Source: Haliangiales bacterium | Lineage (GTDB): Bacteria > Verrucomicrobiota > Verrucomicrobiia > Limisphaerales > AV2 | DNA length: 45,467 bases | NCBI GenBank assembly: GCA_035637175.1 | Contig: DASPXS010000185.1 | Location: forward strand, 1-45,467 | Reading direction: 5' to 3' | Part shown: positions 9,634-31,600 of the stretch, in pieces | Position numbering within the stretch: position 1 is the stretch's first letter | How the letters are laid out: the number at the start of each line of letters is the position of its first letter | Made by a program: the position numbers and the translations under genes | Notes under the pieces: model-generated | What the model saw: the letters and a program-made list of their open reading frames with translations, nothing else | What the model was told of the DNA's origin: nothing | Database searches by the model: none

Positions 9634-11043
9634 CTAGATATCGGTCACTCGGCCTGTGGAATCACCGTGGCGTTCCACGCCGGTTACTCCCAGCCGGTCC
9701 GCCAGGCTCAGGAGCAAGTTGCTCATCGGCACGCCGCCGAATTTCACGTAACGCCCCCCCGCCAACGTTCCGCCGCCGCCGCCGGCGAGGATGACGGGCA
9801 GGTTGACGTGCGTGTGGCGGTTGCCGTCGGCGTTGCCGCTGCCGTACACGATCATCGAATTCTGCAACAGCGAGCCGCCATGCACGTCCTCCGTCTGTTC
9901 CAACTTTTCCAGGAACCTGGCGAATTGTTTCATGTACCACAGGTCGATTTCCGCCACCTTCTCGATCATCTCCTGTTTGTTGCGATGATGGGTCAGGAAG
10001 TGATGGCCTTCGGCAATGCCGATCTCGGGGAAGGCGCGGTTGCTGCCCTCATTGGCGAGCAGGAAGGTCGCGATTCGCGTGGAATCGGTCTGGAACGCCA
10101 GGATCATCATATCATACATGATCTGGAGATACTCTTCGAAGCTGGGCGGGATGCCGGCGGGCGTCTCCACCGTGGGATCGGGCGTCGCGCCGAATTGTTC
10201 GGCCTTCTCGATGCGCCGTTCGATTTCGCGCACGCTGCCGAGATACTCGTCGAGCTTCTGCTTGTCACGGGAGACCAGTTGGCGTTGCAGCGAGCGGGCG
10301 TCATCGAGCACAAAATCGAGAATGGACCGCTGCTGCTGCTGGCGGCGCCGGAGGCTGTCCCGGCGCTCACCAGGTCCGCCGGCACCGAAGAGCCTTTCGA
10401 AGAGGAGACGCGGGTTGGGTTCGGGCGCCACGGGCTGGGTGGGCGAGCGCCAGGAGAGATTGTATTGGTAAGCGCAGGAATAGCCGGAATCGCAGTTGCC
10501 GGATTTCCTGACGGCGTCGCAGGTCAGTTCCAGCGACGGGAACCGCGTGAGATGCCCGACCTGGTTGGCCGCGATCTGGTCGATGGAAATGCCGGCATGA
10601 ATGTCCGCGCCGGCGGTCTTCTTGACACGGACGCCGGTGAGGAAGGTCCCACTGGCGCGCGCGTGGTCGCCAGCGCCGTCCGGTCCCGGGGTTGCGTTTA
10701 CGTGGTCCAGGCCCGAAAGGACTTGCAAACGGTGCTTCACATTCTCCAGCGGCCGCATCGAGCGGTTCAACGCGAAATCGTCTTCTTCGCAGTCGGGCCA
10801 CCAGTTTGCTGGAATAGCTCCGTTCGGGAAATAGACGAATGCCATCCGGAGTGGTGACCCGGTCGGTGTCGAAGCCATCTGCGCGGTTTTGCCGGCATCG
10901 GCTGCGAACGCCCGGAATGGTCGGAGGGATTCGAAGGCCGGCAGCGCCAGGCAGGCGCCGAGGCCGCGGAGGAAATGACGCCGGCTGAGGCTGGCGTATC
11001 GTTGAGCGGCGGTTTCCCGGGCGAGCGGAGCGTTCATTTTCAT
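9634..11043 (-). CDS. DUF1552 domain protein (TAT-exported)
   Basis: 469 aa. TAT leader SRRHFLRGLGACLALPAFES. Body typical of DUF1552 (FVYFPNG...,...HHFLTHH...). ATGA overlap with the upstream DUF1592 gene at 11040-11043. Confidence 0.88.
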   Translation of the reverse strand: MKMNAPLARETAAQRYASLSRRHFLRGLGACLALPAFESLRPFRAFAADAGKTAQMASTPTGSPLRMAFVYFPNGAIPANWWPDCEEDDFALNRSMRPLENVKHRLQVLSGLDHVNATPGPDGAGDHARASGTFLTGVRVKKTAGADIHAGISIDQIAANQVGHLTRFPSLELTCDAVRKSGNCDSGYSCAYQYNLSWRSPTQPVAPEPNPRLLFERLFGAGGPGERRDSLRRRQQQQRSILDFVLDDARSLQRQLVSRDKQKLDEYLGSVREIERRIEKAEQFGATPDPTVETPAGIPPSFEEYLQIMYDMMILAFQTDSTRIATFLLANEGSNRAFPEIGIAEGHHFLTHHRNKQEMIEKVAEIDLWYMKQFARFLEKLEQTEDVHGGSLLQNSMIVYGSGNADGNRHTHVNLPVILAGGGGGTLAGGRYVKFGGVPMSNLLLSLADRLGVTGVERHGDSTGRVTDI

Positions 11044-16451: not shown

Positions 16452-18215
16452 ATGAGCGAGATGGAAAATCAGGAATCGTCTCTGAAACAGTTGCTCGACC
16501 GCATGGTGGAAGCGAAGCAACTGTCTTCCCTGGATGCCGAGACCCTGGTGCGGCAGGGCCGCCAGGGGTCGGAGACGCCCCTGCAATCCGAGGAAGATGT
16601 CCTCCGGTGGGTGGCGAAGGAGTATGACGTCGCCTACACGGCGTTGGAGGAGATCGAACCGGATCGCCAGCTTCTTTCTTTGTTTCCTGCCCGCATTCTG
16701 CTCAAGGAGCAGTTGCTTCCGCTCAGACGAACCAACGGCACCGTCGAAGTCGCGACCAGCCGGCTCTTTGCAACCCAGGGACTGGACGCGCTCAAGACCA
16801 TGACGGGCCTGCGGCTCAAGCCGGTCCTGGCTCCCGCCGAGGCCATCGAGCGCGAGATGAAGAAACGACTCGGCGTCGGCGCGGACACCATCGATACGCT
16901 GGATGAAGAAGCGCCCTTTCAAGTGGTTGATGAAAACAAGGACGACACCAACCTGGACAGCGCCGCCGAAGACGCGTCGATCATCCGGTTCGTCAACCAG
17001 GTCTTGAAAGATGCGATCGAGCTGCGCGCCTCCGACATCCATCTCGAACCGTTCGAGGACGAACTGCGGATTCGTTACCGCATCGACGGTGTGCTGCAGG
17101 AGATTCCGGTGCCGGCGCAAGTGAAGCGGTTCCAACCGGCCATTGTTTCCCGCGTAAAAATATTGAGCCATCTCAACATCGCGGAAAAGCGGCTGCCCCA
17201 GGATGGCCGCATCAAAATCCGACTGGAAAGCAACGAAGTGGACATTCGCGTGTCGGTGATCCCGATGCTCCACGGCGAAGCAGTGGTGATGCGCCTGTTG
17301 CGCCAGAACGCGACCTTGCGCGGGATGAAAGAATTGGGCCTCAACACCCGCGAATTGGAGTGCTTTCGGCGCGTGCTCGAACTGCCTCACGGAATCGTCC
17401 TCGTGACCGGCCCCACCGGCAGCGGCAAGACTTCCACTCTTTACACCGCGCTCAACGAGATCAACGACTCGGTCCGCAAAATCATCACCATCGAAGATCC
17501 GGTCGAATACCAGCTCAGAGGCGTCAATCAGATTCAAATTTCCGAAAAGGCCGGCTTGACCTTCGCGCGCGGGTTGCGTTCGATCCTGCGCCATGACCCC
17601 GACGTGATCCTGATCGGCGAAATTCGCGACCAGGAGACGGCGCAAATTGCGGTGCAGGCATCGCTGACCGGCCATCTGGTTTTTTCCACGCTGCACACGA
17701 ACGATGCGCCCGGCGCCGTCACCCGGCTGATGGACATGGGCGTCGAGGCGTATCTCGTCGCTTCGTCACTTGAAGCCGTGCTCGCGCAACGTCTCGTGCG
17801 CGTGCTCTGCCGGCATTGCAAACAGGAAGACCGTTCACCAACGGCCGAAGCGTTTAAAGCGCAACTGGGCATCCCTGCCAACACGACGTTCTACCGTTCC
17901 GTCGGTTGCCGCGAATGCCGCAATACCGGCTTTTATGGCCGGCAGGCGATTTTCGAGTGGATGGACAGTGACAATGAAATTCGCCAGTTGATTTTGAAGA
18001 ACGCCTCGACGGACCAGATTCGCGACGCGGCCCGCCGCGCGGCGATGTGCACGCTGGCCGAAGACGGCTGGCGCCTCGTGCGGATGGGCATCACCACCGT
18101 CGAGGAAGTGCTCAGCGTGACCACCGCCAAAGAAGTGGCGCGCACCACGCGGAACGAATCACTCGACGGTGTCGCGGCGAACGAAACTCCAGCCGGCGTG
18201 GCGCTCAGCCGCTGA
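16452..18215 (+). CDS. gspE: Type II secretion ATPase GspE (GspE/PilB family)
   Basis: 587 aa. N-terminal T2SSE_N-type domain, Walker A GPTGSGKTST, Asp/His boxes, and a tetracysteine motif CRHC...CRECRNTGFYGR. Confidence 0.93.
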   Translation: MSEMENQESSLKQLLDRMVEAKQLSSLDAETLVRQGRQGSETPLQSEEDVLRWVAKEYDVAYTALEEIEPDRQLLSLFPARILLKEQLLPLRRTNGTVEVATSRLFATQGLDALKTMTGLRLKPVLAPAEAIEREMKKRLGVGADTIDTLDEEAPFQVVDENKDDTNLDSAAEDASIIRFVNQVLKDAIELRASDIHLEPFEDELRIRYRIDGVLQEIPVPAQVKRFQPAIVSRVKILSHLNIAEKRLPQDGRIKIRLESNEVDIRVSVIPMLHGEAVVMRLLRQNATLRGMKELGLNTRELECFRRVLELPHGIVLVTGPTGSGKTSTLYTALNEINDSVRKIITIEDPVEYQLRGVNQIQISEKAGLTFARGLRSILRHDPDVILIGEIRDQETAQIAVQASLTGHLVFSTLHTNDAPGAVTRLMDMGVEAYLVASSLEAVLAQRLVRVLCRHCKQEDRSPTAEAFKAQLGIPANTTFYRSVGCRECRNTGFYGRQAIFEWMDSDNEIRQLILKNASTDQIRDAARRAAMCTLAEDGWRLVRMGITTVEEVLSVTTAKEVARTTRNESLDGVAANETPAGVALSR

Positions 18216-18223
18216 TAATCAGG

Positions 18224-19537
18224 ATGCCCACGTTTCAATACAGAGCGTTGCAAAAAGACGGTACCATCGCCGAAGGGCAACTCGAGGCGGGTGGCCGGCA
18301 GGACGCGTTCCGTCAAATGGAAGGCCGCGGACTGCGCCCCATCAGCCTGGCCGAGCACCGGAACGGCAAACCACAGAAAGCGGAAGCCAACGGCAAAGCG
18401 CAGAAAACCGAGACGCCAAAGGCGGAAAATGTCTCCGGCGAAAAAGTCAATCGCGCGGCGAACTCGACACCGTTCCAGCTTTCCTTTGGCAGCGCGAACA
18501 GGATCTCGGCGCGGACGCTGGAGAATTTCACGCGCCTGCTTTCCAGCCTGCTGGCGGCGGGCGTGCCGCTCAGCCGGGCACTGGTGATTCTGACCAAGGA
18601 AGCGGCCACGCCCGCCGCGCGCGCCAAATGGAAAGAGATTCACGACCTGGTCGTGGACGGCATGTCTCTGGCCGACGCGATGGCGAAGTCTCCCGATACG
18701 TATCCCCGGGTGTATGTGGCGATGGTGGAAGCGGGGGAAACCGGCGGTTTTCTGGACGTGGTATTGGCGCAGATCGCCGATTTTCAGGCGAGCGAGAAGG
18801 AGATGCGGTCCAAGGTCATGGCCGCCATGCTTTATCCCTGCGTTCTGTTGTTCCTGGCGTTGGGCGTTTTGACTTTTCTGCTGGTCTTTTTCATCCCGCG
18901 CTTTCAACTCATTTTTGCCGACTTTCACGCCAACCTTCCGCTCTTGACGCAAGTCATCGTCAAGACCAGCGAAGTGCTCCGTTCGTATGGATTGCTGGCG
19001 GCGTTGGGCCTGGGTATCGCCGCTTTCCTGGTACGCAACTGGTTCGTTTCACCCGCCGGGCGGCGCGCGTGGGAGGGATTGATTCTGCGCGTCCCCGCTG
19101 TCGGGTCTCTGGTGGCGCAGTACGCCATGTCGAGGTTTTGCCGGATGTTGGGCACGTTGCTGGGCGCAGGCGTGCCGCTGATCAACGCCCTCAACGTGGC
19201 GCGCCGCTCGATTGGCAATCAGATTCTCGTGGACGCGGTCTCCAATTCGATTGAACGCGTCAAGGAAGGCAAGGCACTGGGTCCCAGCCTGGCCGATTGC
19301 CGCACACTCTTCTCCGGCTCGGTGTTGGAAATGATTTCGGTCGCGGAGGAGAGCGGGCGTCTGGATCAGGAACTGGTGCGCATCGCCAACGTCACCGAGG
19401 GCGACCTGGATCGCCAGCTCAAAACGGCCGTGGCCCTGGCGGAACCGCTGATGCTTTTCTTCATCGCCGGTTTCATCGGGACCATCTTCATTGGCATGGT
19501 GATGCCCATTTTCACTTTACAACAATACGTCAAATAA
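18224..19537 (+). CDS. gspF: Type II secretion inner-membrane platform protein GspF (GspF/PilC family)
   Basis: MPTFQYRALQKDGTIAEGQLEA... N-terminus and duplicated T2SSF domains (LSSLLAAGVPLSRAL / LGTLLGAGVPLINAL). The ATG at 18224 lies 8 nt after the gspE stop. The track ORF start at 18047 overlaps gspE and is rejected. Confidence 0.9.
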   Translation: MPTFQYRALQKDGTIAEGQLEAGGRQDAFRQMEGRGLRPISLAEHRNGKPQKAEANGKAQKTETPKAENVSGEKVNRAANSTPFQLSFGSANRISARTLENFTRLLSSLLAAGVPLSRALVILTKEAATPAARAKWKEIHDLVVDGMSLADAMAKSPDTYPRVYVAMVEAGETGGFLDVVLAQIADFQASEKEMRSKVMAAMLYPCVLLFLALGVLTFLLVFFIPRFQLIFADFHANLPLLTQVIVKTSEVLRSYGLLAALGLGIAAFLVRNWFVSPAGRRAWEGLILRVPAVGSLVAQYAMSRFCRMLGTLLGAGVPLINALNVARRSIGNQILVDAVSNSIERVKEGKALGPSLADCRTLFSGSVLEMISVAEESGRLDQELVRIANVTEGDLDRQLKTAVALAEPLMLFFIAGFIGTIFIGMVMPIFTLQQYVK

Positions 19538-19558
19538 ATCCGCGATCCGCGATTCAAC

Positions 19559-20023
19559 ATGAAAATCAAAACTTCCATCCGGCTTCCCGTTCAACGGCCG
19601 GGCCAACGGGCGTTCACGCTGGTTGAGCTGCTGCTGGTGCTGGTCATCCTCGGCACCCTGGCGGCTATTGTGCTTCCCAAATTCACCGGTACTACCGAGA
19701 AGGCGCGCCGAACCCAGGCGCAGACCCAGATCGCCGCCTTCAAAACGGCGCTGGAATTGTTTGAGACCGAAAACGGCCATTTCCCCAAAGGCAAAGACGG
19801 CCTGCTGGACCTCATCCAACAGCCGCGCGATGCCCAAAACTGGCATCCCTACCTGCAGGACGAAACGAGTATTCCCAACGATCCCTGGGGTCACCCTTAC
19901 ATTTATCTGTGTCCGGGCAAACACAATCCCAACTCCTACGACATCATCTCGATGGGGCCGGACGGACGCGAAGGAGGCGATGATGACATTACGAGTTGGC
20001 AACAGACAAACCCGAAGCAATGA
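19559..20023 (+). CDS. gspG: Type II secretion major pseudopilin GspG
   Basis: Prepilin N-terminus ...QRAFTLVELLLVLVILGTLAAIVLPKF. GspG hallmark NDPWGHPYIYLCPGKHNPNSYDIISMGPDGREGGDDDI. Confidence 0.9.
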   Translation: MKIKTSIRLPVQRPGQRAFTLVELLLVLVILGTLAAIVLPKFTGTTEKARRTQAQTQIAAFKTALELFETENGHFPKGKDGLLDLIQQPRDAQNWHPYLQDETSIPNDPWGHPYIYLCPGKHNPNSYDIISMGPDGREGGDDDITSWQQTNPKQ

Positions 20024-20558
20024 GTCAGATCGTGTGCGGGCATTCACTCTGATCGAGCTGCTTCTCGTGATGGCGCTGCTGCTGCTCGTGTTCGGAGTGT
20101 CGTTGCCGTCTTTGAAAGGTTTCTTTCGCGGACGGAATCTGGACTCGGAAGCGAGACGTTTTTTGTCGCTGACGCGCTACGGCCAGAGCCGGGCGGTGTC
20201 GGAAGGCGTGCCGATGGTGTTGTGGATTGATACCCGGCGGGGGGCCTACGGTCTGCAGCAGCAAGCCGGTTACACCGACGGCGACAGCAACGCGGTGAGA
20301 TTCACGGTCAGCGAAGAGATGCGGGTTGAGGTTCAAATGCCCGCGGTCACCATGCCGACGAGCCCGTTGAGCCAGACCATGCCGGGCGTGGGCAATGCTA
20401 CGATGATTCGATTTACTCCCGATGGTTTCATCGGGGAAAGCAGCCCTGACCGCATTCTGTTTCGCCAGGGTCAGGACGGTGCCATCGGGATAGTGGAAAG
20501 CACCAATCGGCTGAAATATGAGATGCAAGCCAATGATTCGCTCAATGCCCGCCGTTAA
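19980..20558 (+). CDS. Minor pseudopilin, GspH-like
   Basis: AAGGAGG at 19971-19977, followed by ATGATG at 19980-19985. Prepilin motif VRAFTLIELLLVMALLLLVF, then NLDSEARRFLSLTRYGQSRAV typical of GspH. It overlaps the gspG 3' end. The track ORF start at 19623 is rejected. Confidence 0.75.
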   Translation: MMTLRVGNRQTRSNESDRVRAFTLIELLLVMALLLLVFGVSLPSLKGFFRGRNLDSEARRFLSLTRYGQSRAVSEGVPMVLWIDTRRGAYGLQQQAGYTDGDSNAVRFTVSEEMRVEVQMPAVTMPTSPLSQTMPGVGNATMIRFTPDGFIGESSPDRILFRQGQDGAIGIVESTNRLKYEMQANDSLNARR

Positions 20559-20925
20559 GCGCGCGCCCGCGGCCTTCACGCTGGTCGAGGTGCTGGCGGC
20601 GTTGACGCTCATGGCCATCGTCATTCCGGTGGCGGTGCAAGCCTTGCGCATCGCGAACCTCGCGGGGCAGGTCGGTCAGCGCAAAGCGGTGGCGGCCCGG
20701 GTCGCCGGGCGTGTGCTGAACGAATTGATCGTGACCGGCCAATCGCGGGGCACCACTCAAAACGGCGTCGTCCAGGAAGGGGCGCAACAATATCCGTGGT
20801 CGATGCGTTCGGAGCCGTGGCCTCAGGACGCCATGCGCCTGGTGACTGTTCAAGTCACCTTTCCGGTGCAAGGCCGCGATTACAACGTGCGATTGAGCAC
20901 GCTGATGGACAATTCAACGCAATGA
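20518..20925 (+). CDS. Minor pseudopilin, GspI-like
   Basis: Prepilin motif APAAFTLVEVLAALTLMAIVIPVAV. The size (about 125-135 aa) and position fit GspI. The start could be 20518, 20533 or 20545. Confidence 0.7.
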   Translation: MRCKPMIRSMPAVKRAPAAFTLVEVLAALTLMAIVIPVAVQALRIANLAGQVGQRKAVAARVAGRVLNELIVTGQSRGTTQNGVVQEGAQQYPWSMRSEPWPQDAMRLVTVQVTFPVQGRDYNVRLSTLMDNSTQ

Positions 20926-21647
20926 ACATCGCACGTTCAGCCTGGCGACGCACGCGAGCCTTCACATTGCTGGAGGTGCTCATCGCGGTGATGATTTTTG
21001 CGATTGTGCTCGCGGCGAGCAACACGGTGTTGTATAGCGCGCTCCACCTGCAACGGCGGGCTACTGAATCGGTGGAACAGGCATTGCCCATGCAGCACGC
21101 CTTCGCCGTCATCCGCCGGGACCTCGCCAACCTCGTCGTTCCCGGCGGAACGCTTTCCGGCGTGTTTCAGACCACTTCCATCACCAACCTCGTCGGGGGC
21201 CAATCGAGCCCGGACTTTTACACCAGCGCCGGAATCATTGACGAAACGTCACCGTGGGCGGAAATCCAGAGAGTGTCCTACGTCCTGGCTGACCCCACCA
21301 GCCGCGACGCCACGGGCAAGGACCTCGTCCGGACCGTCACACGCAATTTGCTGCCCGCGACGGTGGAAGATGAACCGGCGCAGCAATGGCTGATGGGCGG
21401 CGTGCAGGGAATGGTGTTCTCTTACTACGACGGCACGCAATGGCGTGATTCATGGGACTCGACAACGGCCGACCCCACGACCGGCCTGACGAACAATCTG
21501 CCGCGGGCGATCAAGGTTCAAATTCAGCTCGCCTCCCAGCAACCCGGCCGCGCCCTGTTCGCGGCCGCGCCGATTGAGCTCGTGGTGCCGATTGTCGTTC
21601 AGGCGCGCACCAATAAAACGCAAGTGGCCAGCGGAGGCGGACGATGA
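20922..21647 (+). CDS. Minor pseudopilin, GspJ-like
   Basis: ATGA overlap with the preceding gene. MNIARSAWRRTRAFTLLEVLIAVMIFAIVLAAS..., then the AVIRRDLANL segment typical of GspJ/PulJ. Confidence 0.75.
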   Translation: MNIARSAWRRTRAFTLLEVLIAVMIFAIVLAASNTVLYSALHLQRRATESVEQALPMQHAFAVIRRDLANLVVPGGTLSGVFQTTSITNLVGGQSSPDFYTSAGIIDETSPWAEIQRVSYVLADPTSRDATGKDLVRTVTRNLLPATVEDEPAQQWLMGGVQGMVFSYYDGTQWRDSWDSTTADPTTGLTNNLPRAIKVQIQLASQQPGRALFAAAPIELVVPIVVQARTNKTQVASGGGR

Positions 21648-22990
21648 ACATCCGAGTGGCGATTGGAAATCGGCGATACAGCAGGTTGGGAACCTGCTCC
21701 ACGGCGCGCCAGGACGGCTCGGTGTTGATTATTGTCATGTGGATCGCGTTCGGCCTGGTGAGCCTGGCGTTGTATTTCGCGCACTCGATGTCGTTGGAGT
21801 TGCGCGCGGCGGACAATCGCGTCGCCGGCATGGAAGCCGAGGAGGCCATCGCGGGCGCGGCGCGTTATGTGAGCAATGTGCTGGCGAATGTCCAGCAGCC
21901 AGGGACGCTCCCGGACACCAACACCTATCGGTTTGCCGCCGTGCCGGTGGGTGATGCCACCTTCTGGCTGATCGGACGTGGCGACGCCCAGGATTCCTCC
22001 GCCACCGCGTATTTCGGCCTGGTCGACGAGGCATCGAAGCTGAACCTCAACACGGCCAGCACCAATATGCTCCTCGGGCTTCCTCGCATGACCGCGGACC
22101 TGGCCGCCAACATCGTTGCCTGGCGCAGCAGCGCTAACAACAATACCGTCGGCGGCGCCAAGTCGGAAACCTACCTGCGACTCAATCCGCCTTACCAATG
22201 CAAGAATGCGCCCTTCGAAACCGTGGATGAATTGCGCCTGGTGTACGGGGCGTATCTGGATGTTCTTTACGGCGAGGACGTGAATCTTAACGGGGTTCTT
22301 GATCCCAACGAGAACGACGGCGATGTGTCGCCGCCCGCGGACGACCAGAATGGCCGGCTGGACCCGGGAATTCTCGAATACGTCACGGTTTACAGCCATG
22401 AGCCCGGCCTGACCACCAACGGCACAGCCCGCGTGGTCGTGACCAATGCGACGCAGTTGGGAAGTTTTCTTCGGAACGCGGGCGTGACGGTGCGTCCGGG
22501 CCGGACGTACACCAGCGTTTTGGATTTCTATTATCAGAGCGGCATCAGCGCGGAGGATTTTGCCAAGGTCGAAGACCAGATCAGAAATCCGAGCCTGGAC
22601 GGTCTGGTGAACGTGAATACCGCCAGCGCCGCGGTATTGGCGTGCCTCTTCGCCGGCGCAGGCGCCGATACCAATAACGCGGTGTCGTTGGTGGCCTACC
22701 GCCAGTCGCAAGCATACCCCTTGACTTCACTGGCCTGGGTCAAGGATGTCCTGGATGCACAAACGGCCAGACGGGTCGGGCCCTATCTCACGGGGAAGAG
22801 CTACCAGTTCACGGCGGACATCGCCGCCGTCGGCCATTTTGGACGGGGCTATCGGCGGGTGAAATACATTTTCGATACCAGCGACAGCGCGCCGAAGGTT
22901 CTTTACCGGCAGGAACTGACCCACATGGGTTGGGCCCTCGGCAAACAAGCGCGGGCCACGTCACTGCTCGCGAAGGCAACAACACCATGA
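21644..22990 (+). CDS. GspK-like minor pseudopilin
   Basis: ATGA overlap. Hydrophobic N-terminus GSVLIIVMWIAFGLVSLALYF without Glu+5. Helix-hairpin-helix-like GLVNVNTASAAVLACL typical of GspK. 448 aa, which is larger than usual. Confidence 0.72.
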   Translation: MNIRVAIGNRRYSRLGTCSTARQDGSVLIIVMWIAFGLVSLALYFAHSMSLELRAADNRVAGMEAEEAIAGAARYVSNVLANVQQPGTLPDTNTYRFAAVPVGDATFWLIGRGDAQDSSATAYFGLVDEASKLNLNTASTNMLLGLPRMTADLAANIVAWRSSANNNTVGGAKSETYLRLNPPYQCKNAPFETVDELRLVYGAYLDVLYGEDVNLNGVLDPNENDGDVSPPADDQNGRLDPGILEYVTVYSHEPGLTTNGTARVVVTNATQLGSFLRNAGVTVRPGRTYTSVLDFYYQSGISAEDFAKVEDQIRNPSLDGLVNVNTASAAVLACLFAGAGADTNNAVSLVAYRQSQAYPLTSLAWVKDVLDAQTARRVGPYLTGKSYQFTADIAAVGHFGRGYRRVKYIFDTSDSAPKVLYRQELTHMGWALGKQARATSLLAKATTP

Positions 22991-24432
22991 TGCCATTGCT
23001 GCAAAGAAAACGGAGGCCTTCCTCGATTGTGGGGCTCGCTCTGGAGGGAGGCCGGCTCGAGGCCGTCGTCCTGCGCCGGACCAACGGCTCGCTCCAGGTC
23101 CTGAAAAACTTTGGCGTATCGCTGGCGCTGAATCCCCTGACCGGCGACCCGGAACTGGTGGGTCGCGAAATTCGGAATCATTTGGATCAGGCGGGCATTC
23201 GCGAACGCGGCTGCGCCGTGTGTGTTCCCTTGAGTTGGGCGTTGACCGCGCAGACGAAAGTGCCCGACATGCCGGAGGCGGACCTCGCGAGTTTTCTGGA
23301 GATTGAAGCCGAACGGGGTTTTCCCTACAGCCCGGACACGCTTTCAGTCTGCCACTCACGCTCCCATTCCGCCAGCGGCGAGCAATATGCCACGCTGGTG
23401 GCCATACCCCGGAACCATCTTTCGCAACTGGAAAGGGCCTTGAAAGCCGCGAAACTTAAGCCGGTGAGTTTCACGCTGGGCGTTGCCGCATTGCAAAGCG
23501 CGGACGACCAACGGCCGCAAGGCGTGCTGGCGCTTGCGATCGGAGACAACAGCGTGGACCTGCAAGTGACTTGCGGAGGCGGCGTCGCCGCGTTGCGCGC
23601 GCTCGAGGGCGCCATCGTAACCGAAGGGGTGCAGAAACGGCTCGACGCCGACCTGCTGGCGCGCGAAGTCCGGGTCACGCTCGGACAGTTGCCGGTCGAG
23701 TTTCGCAGCGCGGTACGGAAGGTAAGGGTGTTTGGGCGCGGTGATTTCGTGCAACGATTCGCCAGTGACATCACGCCCCGCGTGGAAGCGATGGGAATGC
23801 AAGTCGAACTGGTGAAAGGGTACGGCGCCGATGAATTCCACATTCGCCTCCCGTCGGATGCGGTCGTTTCCGCGGCGCTGAGCGCGGCCGCAAGATACCT
23901 GGCCGGAGCGGCTGGTGTTTTTGAATTTATCCCGCCGAAAATCAGCTCCTGGCGGCAACTGAACAACCGGTTTTCCTCAAAGAAGTTGGCCTGGGCGGGG
24001 GCCACAGCGGGTTCCGTGGCCGTGGTGATCGTCACGGCTTTCCTGGTCCAGCAATGGCAGCTTTCGCGGCTTCAATCCAAATGGGCGGCGCTCGGACCGA
24101 AGGTCAAACAACTGGAAGACATGCAGCAACAGATCAGGAAATATCGTCCCTGGTTCGACGAGTCGTTCCGCGGTCTGAGCATCCTGCGCAAACTCACCGA
24201 GGCGTTTCCGGAAGACGGCGTGGTTTCCGCCAAATCCGTGGAGATTCGCGATCTCTCGACGGTCACCTGTTCGGGCACCGCCCGGGACACGCAAGCGTTT
24301 TTGAAGATGCTCGACCAATTGCGCCACACCCGGGAATTCGGCAACGTGCAGGTCGATCAGATTCGCGGCAAAGCCCCCTTGCAGTTCACTTTCAACTTTC
24401 AATGGGGTGAAGGAGGAAGCAATGAAAATTAA
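22987..24432 (+). CDS. GspL-like assembly protein (PilM-like cytoplasmic domain, one TM, PilN-like periplasmic domain)
   Basis: ATGA overlap. N-terminal about 330 aa with an actin/PilM-like pattern (IVGLALEGGRLEAVVL...,...LALAIGDNSVDLQV). Single TM LAWAGATAGSVAVVIVTAFLV (about 23986-24055). Periplasmic alpha/beta domain. Assigned by topology and position, not by strong motif. Confidence 0.65.
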   Translation: MMPLLQRKRRPSSIVGLALEGGRLEAVVLRRTNGSLQVLKNFGVSLALNPLTGDPELVGREIRNHLDQAGIRERGCAVCVPLSWALTAQTKVPDMPEADLASFLEIEAERGFPYSPDTLSVCHSRSHSASGEQYATLVAIPRNHLSQLERALKAAKLKPVSFTLGVAALQSADDQRPQGVLALAIGDNSVDLQVTCGGGVAALRALEGAIVTEGVQKRLDADLLAREVRVTLGQLPVEFRSAVRKVRVFGRGDFVQRFASDITPRVEAMGMQVELVKGYGADEFHIRLPSDAVVSAALSAAARYLAGAAGVFEFIPPKISSWRQLNNRFSSKKLAWAGATAGSVAVVIVTAFLVQQWQLSRLQSKWAALGPKVKQLEDMQQQIRKYRPWFDESFRGLSILRKLTEAFPEDGVVSAKSVEIRDLSTVTCSGTARDTQAFLKMLDQLRHTREFGNVQVDQIRGKAPLQFTFNFQWGEGGSNEN

Positions 24433-24958
24433 AAACCGCCAACAGGGCCTGGCCATTATCGCCATCTCGGTGGTCGCGCTGCTGGCGTCGGACCGATTGA
24501 TCTTTTCCCCGCTCGCCCGCAGTTGGAAGGCGCGCGCCGACCGGATTGTCGAATTGAAGAAATCGATCAGCCGGGGCGCCATGATGCGGGACAGGGAACA
24601 GGCGATTCGGAGTCGCTGGGACAGCATGAGAACCAACACGCTGCCCAACAATGTCTCCGCCGCCGACAACGAAGTGCTCAAAGCGTTCGATCGCTGGTCA
24701 CAGGAAAGCCGGATCAGCGTCAGTTCCATCAGGCCGCAATGGAAACGCAACGGCGAGGACTACATGACGTTGGAGTGCCGCGCCGACGCGTCCGGCAGCA
24801 TGCCGGCGCTCACGCGATTTCTTTACGAACTGGAAAAGGATCCGCTCGCCTTGAAGGTTGAATCGGTGGAAATCAGCTCGCGCGACAACGAGGGCCAGCA
24901 GCTCTCGCTCGCTTTGCTGGTAAGCGGACTGCTGCTCAACCCGCCCTCGCAACCATGA
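24422..24958 (+). CDS. GspM/PilO-like bitopic membrane protein
   Basis: AGGAGG at 24411-24416, then ATG at 24422. N-terminal TM QQGLAIIAISVVALLAS, a coiled segment, and a C-terminal ferredoxin-like region (...MTLECRADASGSMPALTRFLYELEKDP..). Positional assignment. Confidence 0.6.
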   Translation: MKIKNRQQGLAIIAISVVALLASDRLIFSPLARSWKARADRIVELKKSISRGAMMRDREQAIRSRWDSMRTNTLPNNVSAADNEVLKAFDRWSQESRISVSSIRPQWKRNGEDYMTLECRADASGSMPALTRFLYELEKDPLALKVESVEISSRDNEGQQLSLALLVSGLLLNPPSQP

Positions 24959-25710
24959 ACGAACAAGTCCTGCCAGTCGTCGTTTGGCGCGCAGGGGCGC
25001 GCTTCGAAGTCGTCCTTGCAGCGACGCACGGGGCCTCGAGTCGGTCGGGCTCGACCTGCGCGCCGCGGCCGTGTGTGAGTCGCGACCGGGCCAATGCCCG
25101 GTGGCCAACCCTGGGCGCGGGGCGGACGATGTGTTGGAGCGCGGGCGCGTACGTTGTTTCTGCGCGGATGCTGGTCACGCTGATTTTGTTGTTGGCAACC
25201 TCCCTGTTTGCGCGAGCGCAAGGCACGAACGCGCCCGGCCGTCCGGATTATCAGTCGTTCAAAATCCTCACGGAGCGGAACATTTTCGACCCCAACCGCT
25301 CGTCACGTTCCGGCCGGCGGACTGAGACGCGGAGACCGACCAGAGTGGATTCCTTTGCGCTGGTTGGAACCCTCAGCTACGAGAAGGGAACCTTCGCCTT
25401 TTTTGACGGTAGTGATTCGTCCTATAAAAGAGCTCTCAAAACCGGCGACATCATCGCCGGTTGCAGGATCGCGGAGATAACTGCCGACCGCGTGAAGCTG
25501 GAAACCAACGGCGTGCAGATGGAACTGAGCGTGGGCATGCAGATGAAGAAACAGGACGAAGGTGAATGGCAATTGGGCGGCCGCGCCGAGTTCTCCGGCG
25601 CCCCGGTGGCCACCACGGCCGCAAACGAAAAAACCGACGGCACCAACGGCGGCGGGGAAAGCGACGTGTTAAAGAAACTGCTACAAAAACGTGAACAGGA
25701 ATTAAAATGA
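24955..25710 (+). CDS. GspC/PilP-like periplasmic protein (secretin-interacting HR-type domain)
   Basis: The core FALVGTLSYEKGTFAFFDGSDSSYKRALKTGDIIAGCRIAEITADRVKLETNG resembles the GspC HR / PilP beta-sandwich pattern. ATGA overlaps at both ends. The real start may be the later Met at 25168 (MLVTLILLLATSLFARAQG signal/anchor). Confidence 0.55.
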   Translation: MNEQVLPVVVWRAGARFEVVLAATHGASSRSGSTCAPRPCVSRDRANARWPTLGAGRTMCWSAGAYVVSARMLVTLILLLATSLFARAQGTNAPGRPDYQSFKILTERNIFDPNRSSRSGRRTETRRPTRVDSFALVGTLSYEKGTFAFFDGSDSSYKRALKTGDIIAGCRIAEITADRVKLETNGVQMELSVGMQMKKQDEGEWQLGGRAEFSGAPVATTAANEKTDGTNGGGESDVLKKLLQKREQELK

Positions 25711-27383
25711 AAACCGTGAAGAACCTTATTCTTGGGACGACATTGGCCGTCGCCTTGCTGAGCACCGCAGCGGGACAACAAGCGGACTCCACCAAAGCGG
25801 ACAAACAGCCGGCCGCCGCCGAACCGAAAGTCGGCGAACAAACGCCGCCGCCCGCCGACAAGCCGGCAGCGGGAGCCGTCGACAAAGCGGCGGACAACCC
25901 TGCCCCCGCGCCGCCGCCCAAAGAACAGGCGCCGTCTGTTCTCACGCCCGCGTCGGCGAATGCCGGGGCTGCGAGCGGGTTGCGCCTGAACTTCCGCGGC
26001 GTGCCATTGGAGATGGTGTTGAATTATCTGAGCGACGCCGCCGGATTCGTCATCAACATCAAACCGGGAACCGACGTGCGGGGCAAAGTGGATGTCTGGA
26101 GCAATCAGCCGTTGAGCAAGGACGAGGCGGTCGATCTGCTGAACACGGTCTTGAACCAAAACGGCTACGCGGCGGTCCGGAAAGGAAGGACGCTGACGAT
26201 CATGAGCCGCGATGAGGCCAAGAAGGATAAGATTCCGGTCATCCCCAACATCCCCACCAATGGTCCTGCCGGCATGGCCGAGAGCGACGAGATGGCCACC
26301 CAGATCATCCCGATCCGATATGCCAACGCGACTCAAATGACCAAGGACCTTCAGCCGCTCCTTCCCTCCTACGCCAGCCTGACGGCCAACGAAAGCGCCA
26401 ACGCGCTCGTGCTGACGGACACCCAGTCCGATGCCCGACGGATGGTCGAGATTGTCCGGGCGCTCGACACCTCCATTTCCAGCATTGCGACGGTCCGGGT
26501 TTTCCCGCTCAAATTCGCGGACGCGAAAGACCTGGCGAGCGCGGTCAAGGATTTGTTCCAGTCACCGACCCAGCAAAACAATAATAATCCTGCCGCCCGG
26601 TTTTTTGCCCGGTTCGGTCGCGGCGGCTTTGGCGGAGGTCCCGGCGGCGGCGGAGACCAATCGGAAGGGACCGGGAACAGCGAAGCCCGGACCGCGGCCT
26701 CGCGCGTCGTCGCCGTCGCCGATGATCGATCCAATTCCCTGGTGGTCAGCGCACCGGAGGAATTCATACCGACGATCGAACACCTGGTTACTGAATTGGA
26801 TGTCAGCGCGGTGGACATCACCGAACTGCGGGTTTTCCATTTGAAAAACGCCGACCCGGTGGAGATGGCGGAACTTTTTTCGCAGTTGTTCCCGGATGAG
26901 ACCAAGACCAGTAACGACGCGAACCAAAACCAGGGCGGATTTCGCTTCCGGGGGGGATTTGGGGGCGCGTTCAATAACGCGAACCAGAATACCCAATCCA
27001 CGAGCGACCGGATGAAAAAGAAAGGCCGGGTCACGGCAGTGGCGGACCAGCGGACGTCGTCGATCATTGTCAGCGCGGCCAGCGAATTGATGGACCAAAT
27101 CGCGGACATGATCGCGCAACTCGATTCCAGTTCTCCGAAGAAGCAAATGGTGTTTGTCTTTCCCATCGAGAACGCCAATCCGCAGCAGGCTCAGCAGATC
27201 CTGCAAGACCTGTTTCAGCGCAGCAGCACCAGCATGAACCGGAACTCCGCGAACCAGAACAACACCCTGCTCAACCGGAGCCAGTCGAACAATCAAGGGA
27301 CGACCGGCGGCACGGGCTTCGGGAACACCGGTTCCGGCAATAACGGCGGCTTGAATGGCGGCCAGGGACAGACGTTCCGTTAA
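25707..27383 (+). CDS. Secretin N-domain protein (GspD N0-N1-N2-N3 plus half of a further N-domain; no secretin pore domain)
   Basis: Signal peptide MKTVKNLILGTTLAVALLSTAAG and a Pro/Ala linker. N0-like LNFRGVPLEMVLNYLSDAAGFVINI. Three complete Secretin_N-type modules follow (IIPIRYANATQM...ALVLTDTQSDARRMVEIVRALD; VRVFPLKFADAKDL...RVVAVADDRSNSLVVSAPEEF...LVTELD; LRVFHLKNADPVEM...RVTAVADQRTSSIIVSAASELMDQIADMIAQLD). A fourth module is present only as its first half (MVFVFPIENANPQQAQQILQDLFQ) and ends in an N/Q/G-rich tail and TAA. Confidence 0.85.
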   Translation: MKTVKNLILGTTLAVALLSTAAGQQADSTKADKQPAAAEPKVGEQTPPPADKPAAGAVDKAADNPAPAPPPKEQAPSVLTPASANAGAASGLRLNFRGVPLEMVLNYLSDAAGFVINIKPGTDVRGKVDVWSNQPLSKDEAVDLLNTVLNQNGYAAVRKGRTLTIMSRDEAKKDKIPVIPNIPTNGPAGMAESDEMATQIIPIRYANATQMTKDLQPLLPSYASLTANESANALVLTDTQSDARRMVEIVRALDTSISSIATVRVFPLKFADAKDLASAVKDLFQSPTQQNNNNPAARFFARFGRGGFGGGPGGGGDQSEGTGNSEARTAASRVVAVADDRSNSLVVSAPEEFIPTIEHLVTELDVSAVDITELRVFHLKNADPVEMAELFSQLFPDETKTSNDANQNQGGFRFRGGFGGAFNNANQNTQSTSDRMKKKGRVTAVADQRTSSIIVSAASELMDQIADMIAQLDSSSPKKQMVFVFPIENANPQQAQQILQDLFQRSSTSMNRNSANQNNTLLNRSQSNNQGTTGGTGFGNTGSGNNGGLNGGQGQTFR

Positions 27384-27406
27384 GGAGCCCCAGAAGAGAA
27401 CTCAAC

Positions 27407-28603
27407 ATGAACAAAAAAAACTCTAACATGAGATGGCTGGTGATTTGTTTGGTGACCTTGCTGCCTGCCGGCGGCCTGCTCGCCCAACAGCGGACGACTC
27501 AGGGTGCGGGTGCGCGTGGCGGCGGCGGGTCAACCGTTTCGGGGACGAGCCGGCAATACACTCCCAACAGCGAGGTCGGTGAGGCGACGATCACCGTGGA
27601 TCCTGAATCGCGGCGGCTGATCGTCATCACGGACGAAGAAACCAGCAAATATGTCGGCCAGGTGGTCACCAACCTGGATCGTCCCGAACCGCAAGTGCTC
27701 ATCAAAGTCGTTTTCCTGGAGGTTACTCACAATAACAGTTTGGACATCGGAGTTGAGGGTGGGTTCAGCCGCGGTATCGACAACACCACCACCGGAATCG
27801 TAACCCACGCGTTCGGGCTGTCCGCACTCAACAGCTCGCCCGCCTCAAACGCAGTCAATGTGTTCGGGCAGCCCGTACAAAGCTTTGTGCCGGCGCCGCC
27901 GGGCGCGGGACTTTATCAGGTGTTGGGCACGGACTATCAGGTGACGCTGCGGGCCATTGCCCAGGCGGGGAAAACCGAGGTGTTATCGCGACCTTCCATT
28001 CTCGCCCGCAACAACCAGCAGGCAACCATAACCGTCGGCCAATCGGTTCCATTGGTGACCAGCGTGAGCTATAACGGACTCAATGGGACTCCGGTGAGCG
28101 CCATCAGCTACCAGAGCGTCGGGATCATTCTGCGGGTGACGCCCTTTATCAACTCCAACGGCCTGGTGGAGATGATTGTTTCACCCCAAATCTCGCAGCT
28201 CTCGGCCCAGTCGGTTACCGTCTCCGCCGGGGTGAGCGCTCCCGTGATTGATTTGCGCTCGGCCGACACGGTGGTGGTTACGCCGGACGGGCAGACAGTC
28301 ATCATCGGCGGTTTGATGCAAAACCAGAAAACCCAAACCGACAGCAAAATTCCTCTTTTGGGAGACATACCTTTGCTCGGCAACCTCTTTAAACGAAAGG
28401 TCAAATCGAACGTGAAGACCGAACTGCTGATCTTTTTGACCCCGCACATCGTTTATGAGCCTTCCCAACTGGCGGGTCTTTCTGCGACGGAACGAGGCAA
28501 CACGCAATTGGCGCCAAAGGCGTTTACGGAAGAGGAGTTGAATCGTTACCTCGACACGTTGCCGGCGAAAGATGATGCCTCGCCGAAGAAAAAGGGGAAA
28601 TGA
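27407..28603 (+). CDS. Secretin pore-domain protein (second half of an N-domain plus the GspD/PilQ secretin C-domain) with its own signal peptide
   Basis: Signal MNKKNSNMRWLVICLVTLLPAGGLLAQQ and a G-rich stretch. ATITVDPESRRLIVITDEETSKYVGQVVTNLD is the second half of a Secretin_N module. The secretin core follows: VLIKVVFLEV...YQVTLRAIAQAGKTEVLSRPSILARNNQQATITVGQ...IPLLGDIPLLGNLFK...ELLIFLTPHIV. Confidence 0.88.
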   Translation: MNKKNSNMRWLVICLVTLLPAGGLLAQQRTTQGAGARGGGGSTVSGTSRQYTPNSEVGEATITVDPESRRLIVITDEETSKYVGQVVTNLDRPEPQVLIKVVFLEVTHNNSLDIGVEGGFSRGIDNTTTGIVTHAFGLSALNSSPASNAVNVFGQPVQSFVPAPPGAGLYQVLGTDYQVTLRAIAQAGKTEVLSRPSILARNNQQATITVGQSVPLVTSVSYNGLNGTPVSAISYQSVGIILRVTPFINSNGLVEMIVSPQISQLSAQSVTVSAGVSAPVIDLRSADTVVVTPDGQTVIIGGLMQNQKTQTDSKIPLLGDIPLLGNLFKRKVKSNVKTELLIFLTPHIVYEPSQLAGLSATERGNTQLAPKAFTEEELNRYLDTLPAKDDASPKKKGK

Positions 28604-28641: not shown

Positions 28642-30225
28642 ATGATCAAACGAACCCGGCTTGTTTTTGGATTTGGATTGTTGCTGACTGTCTGGGTCAT
28701 GGTGGCTGCCTGGCAGGTGGTCGAGCATGTTCGAGTCAAGGAATCCGCCCGGGCGGCATTGATCAATCGCTCCCGGGACATCACCACGACCTTGGGACTC
28801 GTGATTCGGTCCCAGCGACGATTCGGAGGGATGGTTTCGCAGGAGCGACTGGAGCCGGCCCTCGGGGAGCTGGTCAAATCCGGCGAATTGAGTTCTGTGG
28901 CGCTGTTGAATGCCGCCGGCGAAGTCGTCGCCTCGGCGGGCGCTCCAATCGATGTCGAGACCAAGGGGACGATGCGGACCGGAGAACATTGGGATTCCCG
29001 GAGCGTTACCCTCGTTAACCTGGTTGATTTGGGCGCCAGCGTGGCCCAGGAAGGGGAGACCAATCGTCCGACGATTGTTCTCCCAAGACGGGAGCCGGGC
29101 AGCGGACCGCGTGAAGGCGACCGCCCCCGTCCCAGCGGCGAGATGCCCCCTCCTCCCGATGGCGAGTTGCGAACGAACGGTCCGCTGGCGTCGAACGCTC
29201 CGACCAGCCTGTCGAACGCGGTTGCCCGCATGCCCGCTTCAGTCAGCAATGACCCGGGGACAACCAACCGGGCCGACGGCGGCCCGCGCGAGCGCCCTCC
29301 CGGCCGGCCACGCTTTGGCCGTCCCCCCTGGGTGAGCGAGGAAGAATTCAAATCATTGGTGGAAAAGCGGGGACTGCACGGTTTGGTGATCGTCATGTCC
29401 ACGGAGGCGTTCCTGTCGGCCTGTGCCCAGGACCTTTGGTTGCGGTGCATCATCGGGTGTTTTGCCAGCGTTGCGGTCGTTGGTCTCGGATTGGCCTGGC
29501 GAAACCAGGCAAAGTCGGCGGAGTTGCAGATGCGCCTGCTCCGGGCCAGCGAGTTGAATACCCATCTGAAAGAGATGAATCTGGCCGCGGCCGGACTGGC
29601 GCACGAAACGCGCAATCCGCTGAATATCATTCGCGGGCTGGCGCAAATGATCTCCAAACAGAAGGAGGCGCCGACGGAAGTTCGCAGCCGTTCCCGTGAA
29701 ATCATTGACGAGACGGATCGGGTGACCGCCCAATTGAACGAATTCATCAACTACTCGCGCCCGCGCGAAGTCCGCCGCTCGTCCGTATCATTGAGTCTGG
29801 TCGTTGGCGAGGTCGTTCGTGCCCTGGGTTACGATCTGGAGGAAAAGTGCATTCGCCTGCAGGTGCCGGAGTCGCTGCCGGTGATCGAAGGGGACGAGCA
29901 ATTGCTCCGCCAGGCGCTTTTCAATCTCCTGATCAACGCGGTTCAAGCCGTCGAACGGGGCGGGGACATCGAGGTCGCGGCTTGGAAGAATAATTCCCAC
30001 GGGGTCATTCTGGAGATTCGCGACAACGGCCCCGGCGTGCCGCCGGAACATCGCATCGAGATCTTCAAACCGTACTTCACCACGCACCAAAAAGGGACGG
30101 GCCTGGGTCTGGCGGTGGTCCAACAGATTGTTCTGGCGCACGGTTGGGAGATTGAATGCCTGCCGAACGAGCCCAGGGGCGCGGTGTTGCGAATCACGCA
30201 CCTGAAGCTCGCCTCCGGCGGCTGA
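28642..30225 (+). CDS. Sensor histidine kinase (NtrB/PilS-like, two TM segments)
   Basis: TM1 LVFGFGLLLTVWVMVAAW, an extracytoplasmic region and TM2 CIIGCFASVAVVGLGLAW. HisKA H-box AAGLAHETRNPLNII. HATPase N/G boxes LFNLLINAVQA, IRDNGPGV, GTGLGLAVV. Confidence 0.88.
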   Translation: MIKRTRLVFGFGLLLTVWVMVAAWQVVEHVRVKESARAALINRSRDITTTLGLVIRSQRRFGGMVSQERLEPALGELVKSGELSSVALLNAAGEVVASAGAPIDVETKGTMRTGEHWDSRSVTLVNLVDLGASVAQEGETNRPTIVLPRREPGSGPREGDRPRPSGEMPPPPDGELRTNGPLASNAPTSLSNAVARMPASVSNDPGTTNRADGGPRERPPGRPRFGRPPWVSEEEFKSLVEKRGLHGLVIVMSTEAFLSACAQDLWLRCIIGCFASVAVVGLGLAWRNQAKSAELQMRLLRASELNTHLKEMNLAAAGLAHETRNPLNIIRGLAQMISKQKEAPTEVRSRSREIIDETDRVTAQLNEFINYSRPREVRRSSVSLSLVVGEVVRALGYDLEEKCIRLQVPESLPVIEGDEQLLRQALFNLLINAVQAVERGGDIEVAAWKNNSHGVILEIRDNGPGVPPEHRIEIFKPYFTTHQKGTGLGLAVVQQIVLAHGWEIECLPNEPRGAVLRITHLKLASGG

Positions 30226-30229
30226 GCCA

Positions 30230-31600
30230 ATGCGACCGGTCACGGACAACGCGAACGTGAAGAGCCCGCGGATTCTGATAGTGGACGACGATGCTGCGCA
30301 GCGCAGTCTGCTCGATTCATTCTTGAAAAGCCAGGGCTTCGACACCGTCCCTGTGGCTTCCGGCGAAGCGGCGCTGGAGGTTCTTCGCAAGGGCGATATC
30401 GGCATGATGATCTCCGATGTGCGGATGCCGGGCCTCTCCGGTCTGGAAACGCTCCGCCAGGCGCGCCAGGAACACGCTGTGCTGCCGGTCCTGCTCGTGA
30501 CGGCGTATGCCGACATTCGCGAAGCCGTCGGGGCCATGCGGGACGGCGCGCTCAATTATCTGGCCAAGCCGATCGACCTCGACGAGTTGCTGGCTTCCGT
30601 GCAGCAGGCGACCGGCGTCTCCGAGGCCGCGCCGGTCAGGTTCAGCGAAGACAAACAACTACCCGGGCACATCATCGCGCACAGTCCGCTGATGAAGGCG
30701 TTGTTCCGCGACGCTTCGCTCATTGCCTCCTCGGACAGTCGCGTGTTGATCACGGGTGAAAGCGGTGTTGGCAAGGAGGTGCTGGCCGACGTGATTCACC
30801 TGTGGAGTCCCCGTTCCTCCGGTCCCCTGGTCAAAGTCAACTGCGCCGCCATTCCGGAAACACTGTTGGAGAGCGAACTCTTCGGCCACGAAAAAGGGGC
30901 GTTCACCGGCGCCGTGGTGCAACGAATCGGCCGTTTCGAGCAGGCCAACGGCGGAACGATCTTCCTCGATGAGATCGCGGAAATGTCTCCTCAACTTCAG
31001 GCAAAACTGCTGCGGGTCACGCAGGACGGCCGGTTCCAACGCGTCGGCTCAAACACTGAAGTCCAGACCAACACCCGGATTTTGGCCGCCACCAACCGGA
31101 ACCTGGAAGAGGAGGTCAAAAAAGGACATTTCCGCGAAGACCTGTTCTACCGTCTGGATGTGGTCGAACTCAACATCCCTTCCCTGCGCGAGCGGCGGGA
31201 GGACATCCTTCCCCTGGCCAGCCATTTTGTCGCGGAACTGACTCAAGGCCGTGCGCGGTTCTCAGCGCTGGTCACGGATTGTCTGGGGCGATACGCCTGG
31301 CCTGGAAACGTGCGTGAACTGCGCAACGCGATGGAACGGGCGACCTTGCTTTCGCGGGGTGAACTGATTCTGCCCGAGCACCTCCCGGCGCGGGTGCGCG
31401 CCGTGATCCAACAGTCCGCCGCTGAACCGGTTGACGCCCAGCGCCTGGAGGAAATCGAACACCAGGCCATCTCTCAAGCGTTGAGCAAACACAATTTCAA
31501 TCGCACGGAAACAGCCAAAGCTTTGGGCATAAGCCGCCGGGCATTGATCTACAAGCTGCAACGCCTTCGCGAACTTGGTTTCGAAGTGGATCCACAATAG
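30230..31600 (+). CDS. Sigma-54-dependent response regulator (NtrC/PilR family: REC + AAA+ + Fis-type HTH)
   Basis: REC: RILIVDDD...[10 protein letters not shown]...LVTAY...YLAKP. AAA+: GESGVGKE Walker [16 protein letters not shown] (GAFTGA motif), IFLDEI Walker B. C-terminal HTH: [20 protein letters not shown]. Confidence 0.93.

Follow-up and report, generated by a model that had tools for sequence, protein, structure and literature searches.

The 45,467-nucleotide stretch of DNA analyzed here (the window: contig DASPXS010000185.1 of GenBank assembly GCA_035637175.1, labelled Haliangiales bacterium and assigned by GTDB to Limisphaerales, Verrucomicrobiota) encodes, at the end of a type II secretion operon, a GspD secretin that is divided between two adjacent genes of the plus strand. 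The upstream gene, ORF1 or gspD-N (25707..27383, 558 amino acids), encodes the periplasmic N-module and lacks the pore domain; the downstream gene, ORF2 or gspD-C (27407..28603, 398 amino acids), encodes the pore-forming C-module. The two are separated by an intergenic spacer of 23 nucleotides (27384..27406), lie in different frames, and are predicted to be exported separately. Secretins are described as single-chain, two-module channels (N-module and C-module), and GspD forms the roughly 15-mer outer-membrane channel of type II secretion. In the present case, gene fission has cut the pore-proximal N-domain (N3) between its halves, the position of the cut is conserved, and the pair is colinear with unsplit homologues. 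The pair almost certainly represents a genuine, conserved two-gene secretin, and the most plausible interpretation is that it yields a functional GspD whose two exported chains probably rejoin at N3.

The position of the cut emerges from Pfam searches. A scan of the whole ORF1 protein identifies an N0 domain (residues 94-160, 25986..26186; PF21305, E-value 4.7e-11) and four stretches of Secretin_N similarity, and detects no Secretin pore domain. Downstream of the predicted signal peptide (MKTVKNLILGTTLAVALLSTAAG|QQ, 25707..25775, read from the sequence) and N0, three Secretin_N modules are complete (approximately residues 198-255, 263-366 and 375-475, 26298..27131): searched as fragments, they match the profile over its whole length with 45.7, 60.3 and 48.2 bits. 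The second and third contain Gly/Phe/Asn-rich loops of about 40 amino acids between alpha1 and beta2. This part of the protein aligns with N0-N1-N2 of solved secretin structures. The fourth stretch is the first half (beta1-alpha1) of N3 (residues 480-505, MVFVFPIENANPQQAQQILQDLFQ, 27144..27221; profile positions 1-26 of 69), which is kept in all ORF1 homologues and is followed by a C-terminal tail of 53 amino acids rich in Asn, Gly, Ser, Thr and Gln, a remnant of the N3 loop (27222..27380).

The missing half is found in ORF2. In this protein, the predicted Sec signal peptide (residues 1-26, predicted cut LLA|QQ, 27407..27484) is followed by a Gly-rich linker (residues 27-58, 27485..27580) that ends in the conserved motif RQY-x-P-N-x-x-V-G, the second half (beta2-beta3-alpha2) of N3 (residues 59-92, 27581..27682; profile positions 26-69 of 69), and the Secretin pore domain (PF00263, residues 183-349, 27953..28453; E-value 1.5e-49). 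Three positions of the linker region, Y51, G58 and A60, are near-invariant (27557-27586). The whole ORF2 gives a weak Secretin_N match to profile positions 27-69 only (residues 54-96), and its residues 46-362 align with residues 276-583 of XcpQ, that is, with the second half of N3 and then directly with the pore. Comparison with the solved structures of GspD, XcpQ and PulD yields E-values of 1e-29 to 1e-35. When the two sides of the break are searched as fragments, ORF1 475-558 matches Secretin_N positions 1-26 of 69 with 18.1 bits and ORF2 27-112 matches positions 26-69 of 69 with 19.9 bits, both below the Pfam gathering score of 28.2 bits; joined in silico, they match positions 1-69 of 69 with 40.7 bits. 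Thus, the two halves are exactly complementary, given that profile positions 1-26 and 26-69 join into a full, above-threshold match. The original prediction, made from the DNA and its open reading frames, had proposed this layout (N0, three Secretin_N modules and half of a fourth, with the other half and the pore on ORF2) and had attributed it to gene fission in the variable loop of the pore-proximal N-domain. The ORF coordinates, the 23-nucleotide gap and the difference in frame all agree with the sequence, the Pfam boundaries place a half-domain on each side of the break and no complete N-domain there, and the profile complementarity bears out the fission itself.

The same division is apparent with TIGR02517, the NCBIfam equivalog profile for GspD, with 208.3 bits for ORF1 (model positions 1-294 in the best stretch) and 246.2 bits for ORF2 (model positions 274-599). 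Each protein is below the cutoff of 351.35 bits, and no single polypeptide qualifies as GspD; the domain set is present but spread, with N0, three full N-domains and half of N3 on ORF1 and the rest on ORF2. Among the best 120 database homologues of each protein, those of ORF1 are all 400-600 amino acids long and contain N0 and Secretin_N only, with the pore domain absent, and those of ORF2 are almost all about 400 amino acids long, nearly all with the pore domain alone.

Unsplit relatives indicate where the split originated. In an exhaustive profile search with ORF2, the complete proteins among the top third of the matches have about 400-500 amino acids; unsplit secretins start at 251 bits, and forms of 660-1350 amino acids with 40-51% identity are frequent below that score. 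The named unsplit members come from Tepidisphaeraceae and Phycisphaerales (Phycisphaerae, Planctomycetota), and the nearest relatives, the GspD proteins of Phycisphaerae, occupy the same operon position and are colinear with the pair, with the 40-51% identity applying to the C-module. For example, an unsplit gspD of 845 amino acids takes the operon position of ORF1 and ORF2, with J-, K- and M-type genes upstream (locus L091). Residues 43-549 of ORF1 align with residues 54-609 of the protein P0291, and residues 33-372 of ORF2 with its residues 482-812; the overlap of the two alignments is a low-complexity loop. The last N-domain of the unsplit proteins consists of beta1-alpha1 (e.g., QTFFIYPLKNGQAMDMQATLNSLFG), 90-130 residues rich in Gly, Ser, Thr and Asn, and then beta2-beta3-alpha2 (LLGQVYVVADADTNSLLVST...LDRAVPQVLIKV). 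In the split family, the median lengths of the ORF1 tail and the ORF2 linker are 54 and 32 amino acids, and their sum is roughly equal to the unsplit loop. As the unsplit relatives have a giant loop where the split family is cut, the fission occurred inside a disordered loop that was already there.

The downstream gene carries an export signal of its own. The N-terminus of ORF2 (MNKKNSNMRWLVICLVTLLPAGGLLA|QQ) starts with positive charge, which is followed by a hydrophobic core, and position -1 is occupied by a small residue. Signal features were scored on 80 non-identical ORF2 homologues after alignment on their conserved A|Q site. The residue before the predicted cut (-1) is Ala in 73 proteins and Gly in the other 7, the residue after it (+1) is Gln throughout, and at -3 there is Ala, Leu, Val, Ile, Ser, Thr or Gly in 79 proteins and Pro in the remaining one. 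The uncharged core spans 10-21 residues (median 15), and at least one Lys or Arg precedes it in every homologue (median 3). These features are far more frequent than expected by chance, there is no lipobox cysteine in the signal regions of the 80 homologues, and such a pattern is what a Sec signal cleaved by signal peptidase I would show. The Sec signal originally proposed for the downstream half is thus supported by rule-based features in 80 of 80 homologues. The first residue after the predicted cut in the window is Q27 (27485-27487); since Gln occupies position +1 in all 80 homologues, a pyroglutamate at the mature N-terminus is possible. The signal peptides of ORF1 and ORF2 both end in A-x-[AG]|QQ, which is too small a basis for a claim of homology between the two. 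The ORF2 signal could have arisen de novo from loop sequence or, alternatively, could be an ancestral signal kept through tandem duplication followed by reciprocal loss.

A survey of one genome per species identifies ORF2 relatives in at least 582 genomes, and Verrucomicrobiota is the label of nearly all of the best 80, among them Limisphaerales and a Pedosphaera genome. The split was scored in 80 loci with upstream sequence (three more loci have no upstream sequence): an ORF1-like frame stops before ORF2 in 80 of 80 loci, a fused form is found in none, and the two genes are adjacent in 79. The surveyed loci reach down to 49% identity. Gap lengths vary, and ORF2 is shifted from the ORF1 frame by 0 (31 loci), 1 (21 loci) or 2 (28 loci); with the offsets spread in this manner, there is no shared mechanism of frameshifting or readthrough. 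The identical ORF2 protein occurs on 14 contigs from independent ENA, NCBI and JGI assemblies and, in each of the six places shown, is preceded by a gene of 558 or 565 amino acids with N0 and Secretin_N domains. Three loci with ORF2 proteins 60-63% identical to that of the window (L007-L009) have the same gene pair and the same order of type II secretion genes, and even a distant short form with 47% identity (P0259) is preceded by an ORF1-like gene that ends with ...KVFVYKLKNADAEEVAAIVQGLFPEG and a Ser/Asn-rich tail. That lineages so divergent share the cut site points to a single old fission event. A 603-amino-acid protein (P0021) that appeared to be a fused form was rejected as such: its C-terminal fusion is to the downstream kinase, not to ORF1.

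For the junction itself, AlphaFold2 was run on a construct in which ORF1 471-558 is fused to ORF2 27-108. The single-sequence run produces the expected beta-alpha...beta-beta-alpha succession with a pLDDT of 46 and is uninformative on packing. With an alignment that combines unsplit homologues with unpaired ORF1-only and ORF2-only fragments (A8; MAFFT alignments of full-length rows, A4, A6 and A7, were set aside as the repeated N-domains were out of register), pLDDT reaches 92-96 in both N3 halves and is 45-53 in the tail and the linker. The modelled elements are, in ORF1, a strand at 481-486 and a helix at 492-504 and, in ORF2, strands at 61-65 and 70-75 and a helix at 77-90 (pLDDT 92-94 for the ORF2 elements). 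Most of the top Foldseek matches in the PDB are secretin N-domains; the matches to the N-domains of XcpQ and ExeD extend over 146-151 columns with TMq of 0.35-0.37, which is close to the maximum possible for a model with about 58 ordered residues of 170, and the second half alone reaches 0.19-0.20. Given that these matches include both halves, the model packs beta1-alpha1 of ORF1 on beta2-beta3-alpha2 of ORF2 in the canonical fold.

Several explanations of the split have to be weighed. An assembly or sequencing frameshift, or a decaying gspD pseudogene, might be suspected from one window alone, which would be insufficient in this respect, the more so as the contig belongs to a metagenome-assembled genome whose taxonomic label is doubtful. 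However, the same architecture recurs in independent ENA, NCBI, JGI and Logan assemblies, all 80 species-level loci share the split, with conserved motifs and intact ORFs in both families, and the remaining operon is intact. The conservation of the split across species refutes artefact and decay, the probability of which is negligible. It also agrees with the original argument against a simple frameshift error: both the stop and the second signal peptide are kept in all 80 loci, and the close relatives have neither an intact gspD nor signs of decay at the locus. Production of one full-length GspD by recoding, through a programmed frameshift or stop-codon readthrough, is very improbable as well. 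It would be compatible with the 31 loci in which both ORFs share a frame and with the window, where the offset corresponds to the -1 frame; indeed, the gaps in the first four loci (2 mod 3) suggested a conserved -1 offset and programmed frameshifting, an idea that was rejected with the offsets of all 80. The geometry is not constant in either offset or gap length, fusion would put a hydrophobic signal sequence midway in a periplasmic protein, and every ORF2 retains a start codon and a canonical signal peptide.

The alternative that deserves more attention accepts two real, conserved genes and holds that N3 is not rebuilt. ORF2 would then be a self-sufficient short secretin in which the beta-beta-alpha remnant has another role or partner, and ORF1 would act in the periplasm as a ring or adaptor protein in its own right, or would associate with the pore only transiently, via, e.g., the conserved motif in its tail. 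There are indeed short secretins with few N-domains, ORF2 has matches to the MshL, RcpA and phage pIV families as well, and the conservation of R524, L521 and Y51 is not explained by the N-domain fold. This alternative nevertheless appears unlikely: the half-domains are exactly complementary, both are conserved at every locus, the genes are adjacent in nearly all loci, the known N-domain fold implies that a lone beta-beta-alpha unit would expose its hydrophobic core, and in the AlphaFold2 model the two halves pack together at high confidence. Complementation of N3 is therefore the likely way in which the two chains join, although a number of points weigh against this conclusion and against the functional two-chain GspD in general. 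The case for complementation combines inference with a model of a fused chain; AlphaFold2 was given a single artificial chain and an alignment with unsplit homologues, which may themselves account for the outcome, so that the run is a consistency test and no proof. The best Foldseek E-value is 0.057, so that none of the matches is significant; the domain is small and has a long loop. Signal peptides were called from sequence rules and not with SignalP, all the genomes are metagenome assemblies, and in one locus, the sole surveyed exception to adjacency, the gap between ORF1 and ORF2 is 809 nucleotides (L026:2768-3578).

The preferred reading, a GspD assembled from two exported chains, suggests the following scenario. 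In an ancestor that belonged to Verrucomicrobiota, the gspD gene would have split within the alpha1-beta2 loop of N3, which is disordered and very long. The Sec pathway would export both products separately, with cleavage of the signal peptides. ORF2, consisting of the linker, the beta2-beta3-alpha2 half and the beta-barrel pore, would multimerize and insert in the outer membrane as the C-module. ORF1, which comprises the N0 domain, three N-domains, half of N3 (beta1-alpha1) and the tail, would be a soluble periplasmic N-module that builds the periplasmic N-rings and contacts, through N0, a GspC-like protein of the inner-membrane platform. We infer that reassembly occurs in a 1:1 ratio, each ORF1 locking non-covalently to one ORF2 by completing N3; the resulting full-length protomer would link the pore through N0 to the inner-membrane platform.

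The sequences on both sides of the cut contain conserved motifs that might contribute to this association. In the ORF1 tail, the L-x-x-R motif (L521-R524, 27267..27278) is conserved in 68 aligned pairs, where R524 never varies and L521 is kept in at least 90%, within the broader motif N-x-[A/P]-L-x-x-R. By inspection, conservation like that of the tail and linker motifs is not seen in the loops of unsplit relatives. The tail and linker motifs may clasp each other, touch a neighbouring subunit or bind another component; AlphaFold2 gives low confidence to both. A more speculative and rather doubtful possibility is that the split is adaptive, in which case the pore would insert alone and the N-module would dock reversibly via N3 complementation, aided by a clasp of the L521-x-x-R524 tail motif and the linker motif (RQY..NG.VG). 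The link between pore and platform could then be put together, exchanged or regulated as needed, and the pair would be a natural split-domain switch. Within the split family, there is also a conserved segment close to the C-terminus of ORF2, F-[TS]-[ED]-x-E-L-[ND]-x-[FY]-[LI]-[DE]-x-[LV]-P (residues 373-386, 28523-28564), which may be an S-domain-like or a pilotin-binding element.

The number of N-domains varies among ORF1 homologues, some of which lack one complete N-domain (e.g., L009:6658-7962 and L015; 434 versus 558 amino acids); the terminal half-domain is retained even in these. Long low-complexity alpha1-beta2 loops, rich in Gly, Phe, Asn and Gln (GGFGG, RFxxRF), are present in all N-domains of this family (26550-26700, 26890-27020 and 27222-27580 in the window) and may line or fill the periplasmic vestibule.

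Single-chain GspD proteins of solved structure (XcpQ, 5wln; E. coli and Vibrio GspD, 5wq7/5wq8; PulD, 6hcg) have the same order of N0, N-domains, N3 and pore, whereas here the protomer consists of two polypeptides, cut in N3, the second of which has its own signal peptide. A split secretin gene as such is a hallmark of the rhizobial-type type III systems, with rhcC1 (nolW) and rhcC2, and is found also in P. syringae as hrcIIC1 and hrcIIC2; the rhcC1/rhcC2 split is conserved in the lineage, and its significance is reported to be unknown (PMC3574062, PMC3973906). As in the present family, the N-terminal part and the C-terminal pore part are encoded by separate genes. The differences are that the Rhc pair belongs to type III secretion and its genes are non-adjacent (PMC4311626, PMC3973906), whereas the genes described here belong to type II secretion and are 23 nucleotides apart. 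Moreover, RhcC2 is reported to come from the Tad-type secretin RcpA by partial gene replacement (PMC4311626, citing Abby and Rocha 2012), so that the Rhc pair is a chimera rather than the product of in-place fission. For ORF2, the best family match is GspD, the protein is colinear with unsplit GspD, and a Tad/RcpA origin is not indicated. Another partial likeness is offered by BfpB-BfpG and PilQ-TsaP (the PDB entry 6ve2 is among the structure matches of ORF2), where a second polypeptide near the N3 ring completes the secretin complex. BfpG binds the intact secretin BfpB near N3 in a 17:17 complex (PMC12531336); BfpG and TsaP are accessory to an intact secretin, whereas here the partner holds the N0-N2 part and half of N3 of the secretin itself. 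The original prediction named no precedent for GspD/PilQ secretins; none was found for these, but among secretins in general the rhizobial-type type III split is known (PMC3574062, PMC3973906, PMC4311626). A split GspD or PilQ, or a split type II secretin from Verrucomicrobiota, is not described in the literature searched, which was mostly without subscription journals, so that an earlier mention is possible.

The ORF1-ORF2 pair closes the type II secretion operon, the rest of which (16452..24958, plus strand; identified by Pfam and context) comprises gspE, gspF, gspG, gspH, gspJ, gspK, and L-like and M-like genes, that is, the pair lies in the cluster expected for GspD. The gene immediately upstream of ORF1 (24955..25710, plus strand) shows a weak similarity to PilP (2y4x, E-value 0.28) and is tentatively considered a GspC/PilP-like partner that binds N0. 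The true start of this gene is probably M72 (MLVTLILLL...), as called by JGI in locus L004. Between ORF1 and ORF2, there is no plus-strand match to a promoter or terminator, and co-transcription of the two genes is likely given this result and the location of the pair at the end of the operon. Directly downstream of ORF2, genes for a histidine kinase (HisKA) and a sigma54-type response regulator (28642..31600, plus strand) are encoded; the kinase and the regulator are both present in all six loci with the identical ORF2 (L001-L006) and in L007, and L008 and L009 have the kinase only. This pair may control the type II secretion operon.

The taxonomic labels of contigs with this locus are in part ill-fitting. 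In addition to the Haliangiales label of the ORF2 in the window, these include Binatia, Limnocylindrales, Acidoferrum, Saccharimonadales, Bifidobacterium, Cyanophyceae, Kapaibacterium and Akkermansia muciniphila (loci L018, L020, L021, L030, L032, L034, L038, L042, L044, L061, L070, L075, L077 and L088), and these labels probably result from mis-binning. A PSD/PSCyt "planctomycete cytochrome" protein is encoded in the window as well (11040-13625, minus strand).

Annotation pipelines designate ORF1 as "secretin N-terminal domain-containing protein" and ORF2 as "hypothetical" or "GspD", and, given that neither protein passes the GspD equivalog cutoff, type II secretion systems may be under-called in this phylum. 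What is new is a type II secretin with a conserved within-domain break and dual export, split secretin genes as such being already known. The family is a clear case of gene fission in a pre-existing disordered loop with a second export signal on the downstream gene. It is common across a major environmental phylum and is relevant for specialists in secretion systems and protein evolution. It looks like a natural experiment: at least 80 verrucomicrobial species, and probably several hundred, have the two modules of the secretin as separate proteins, cut within a folded domain. Reassembly of the chains would imply that the N3 ring tolerates a junction that is not covalent and that the pore module holds all the information for outer-membrane targeting.

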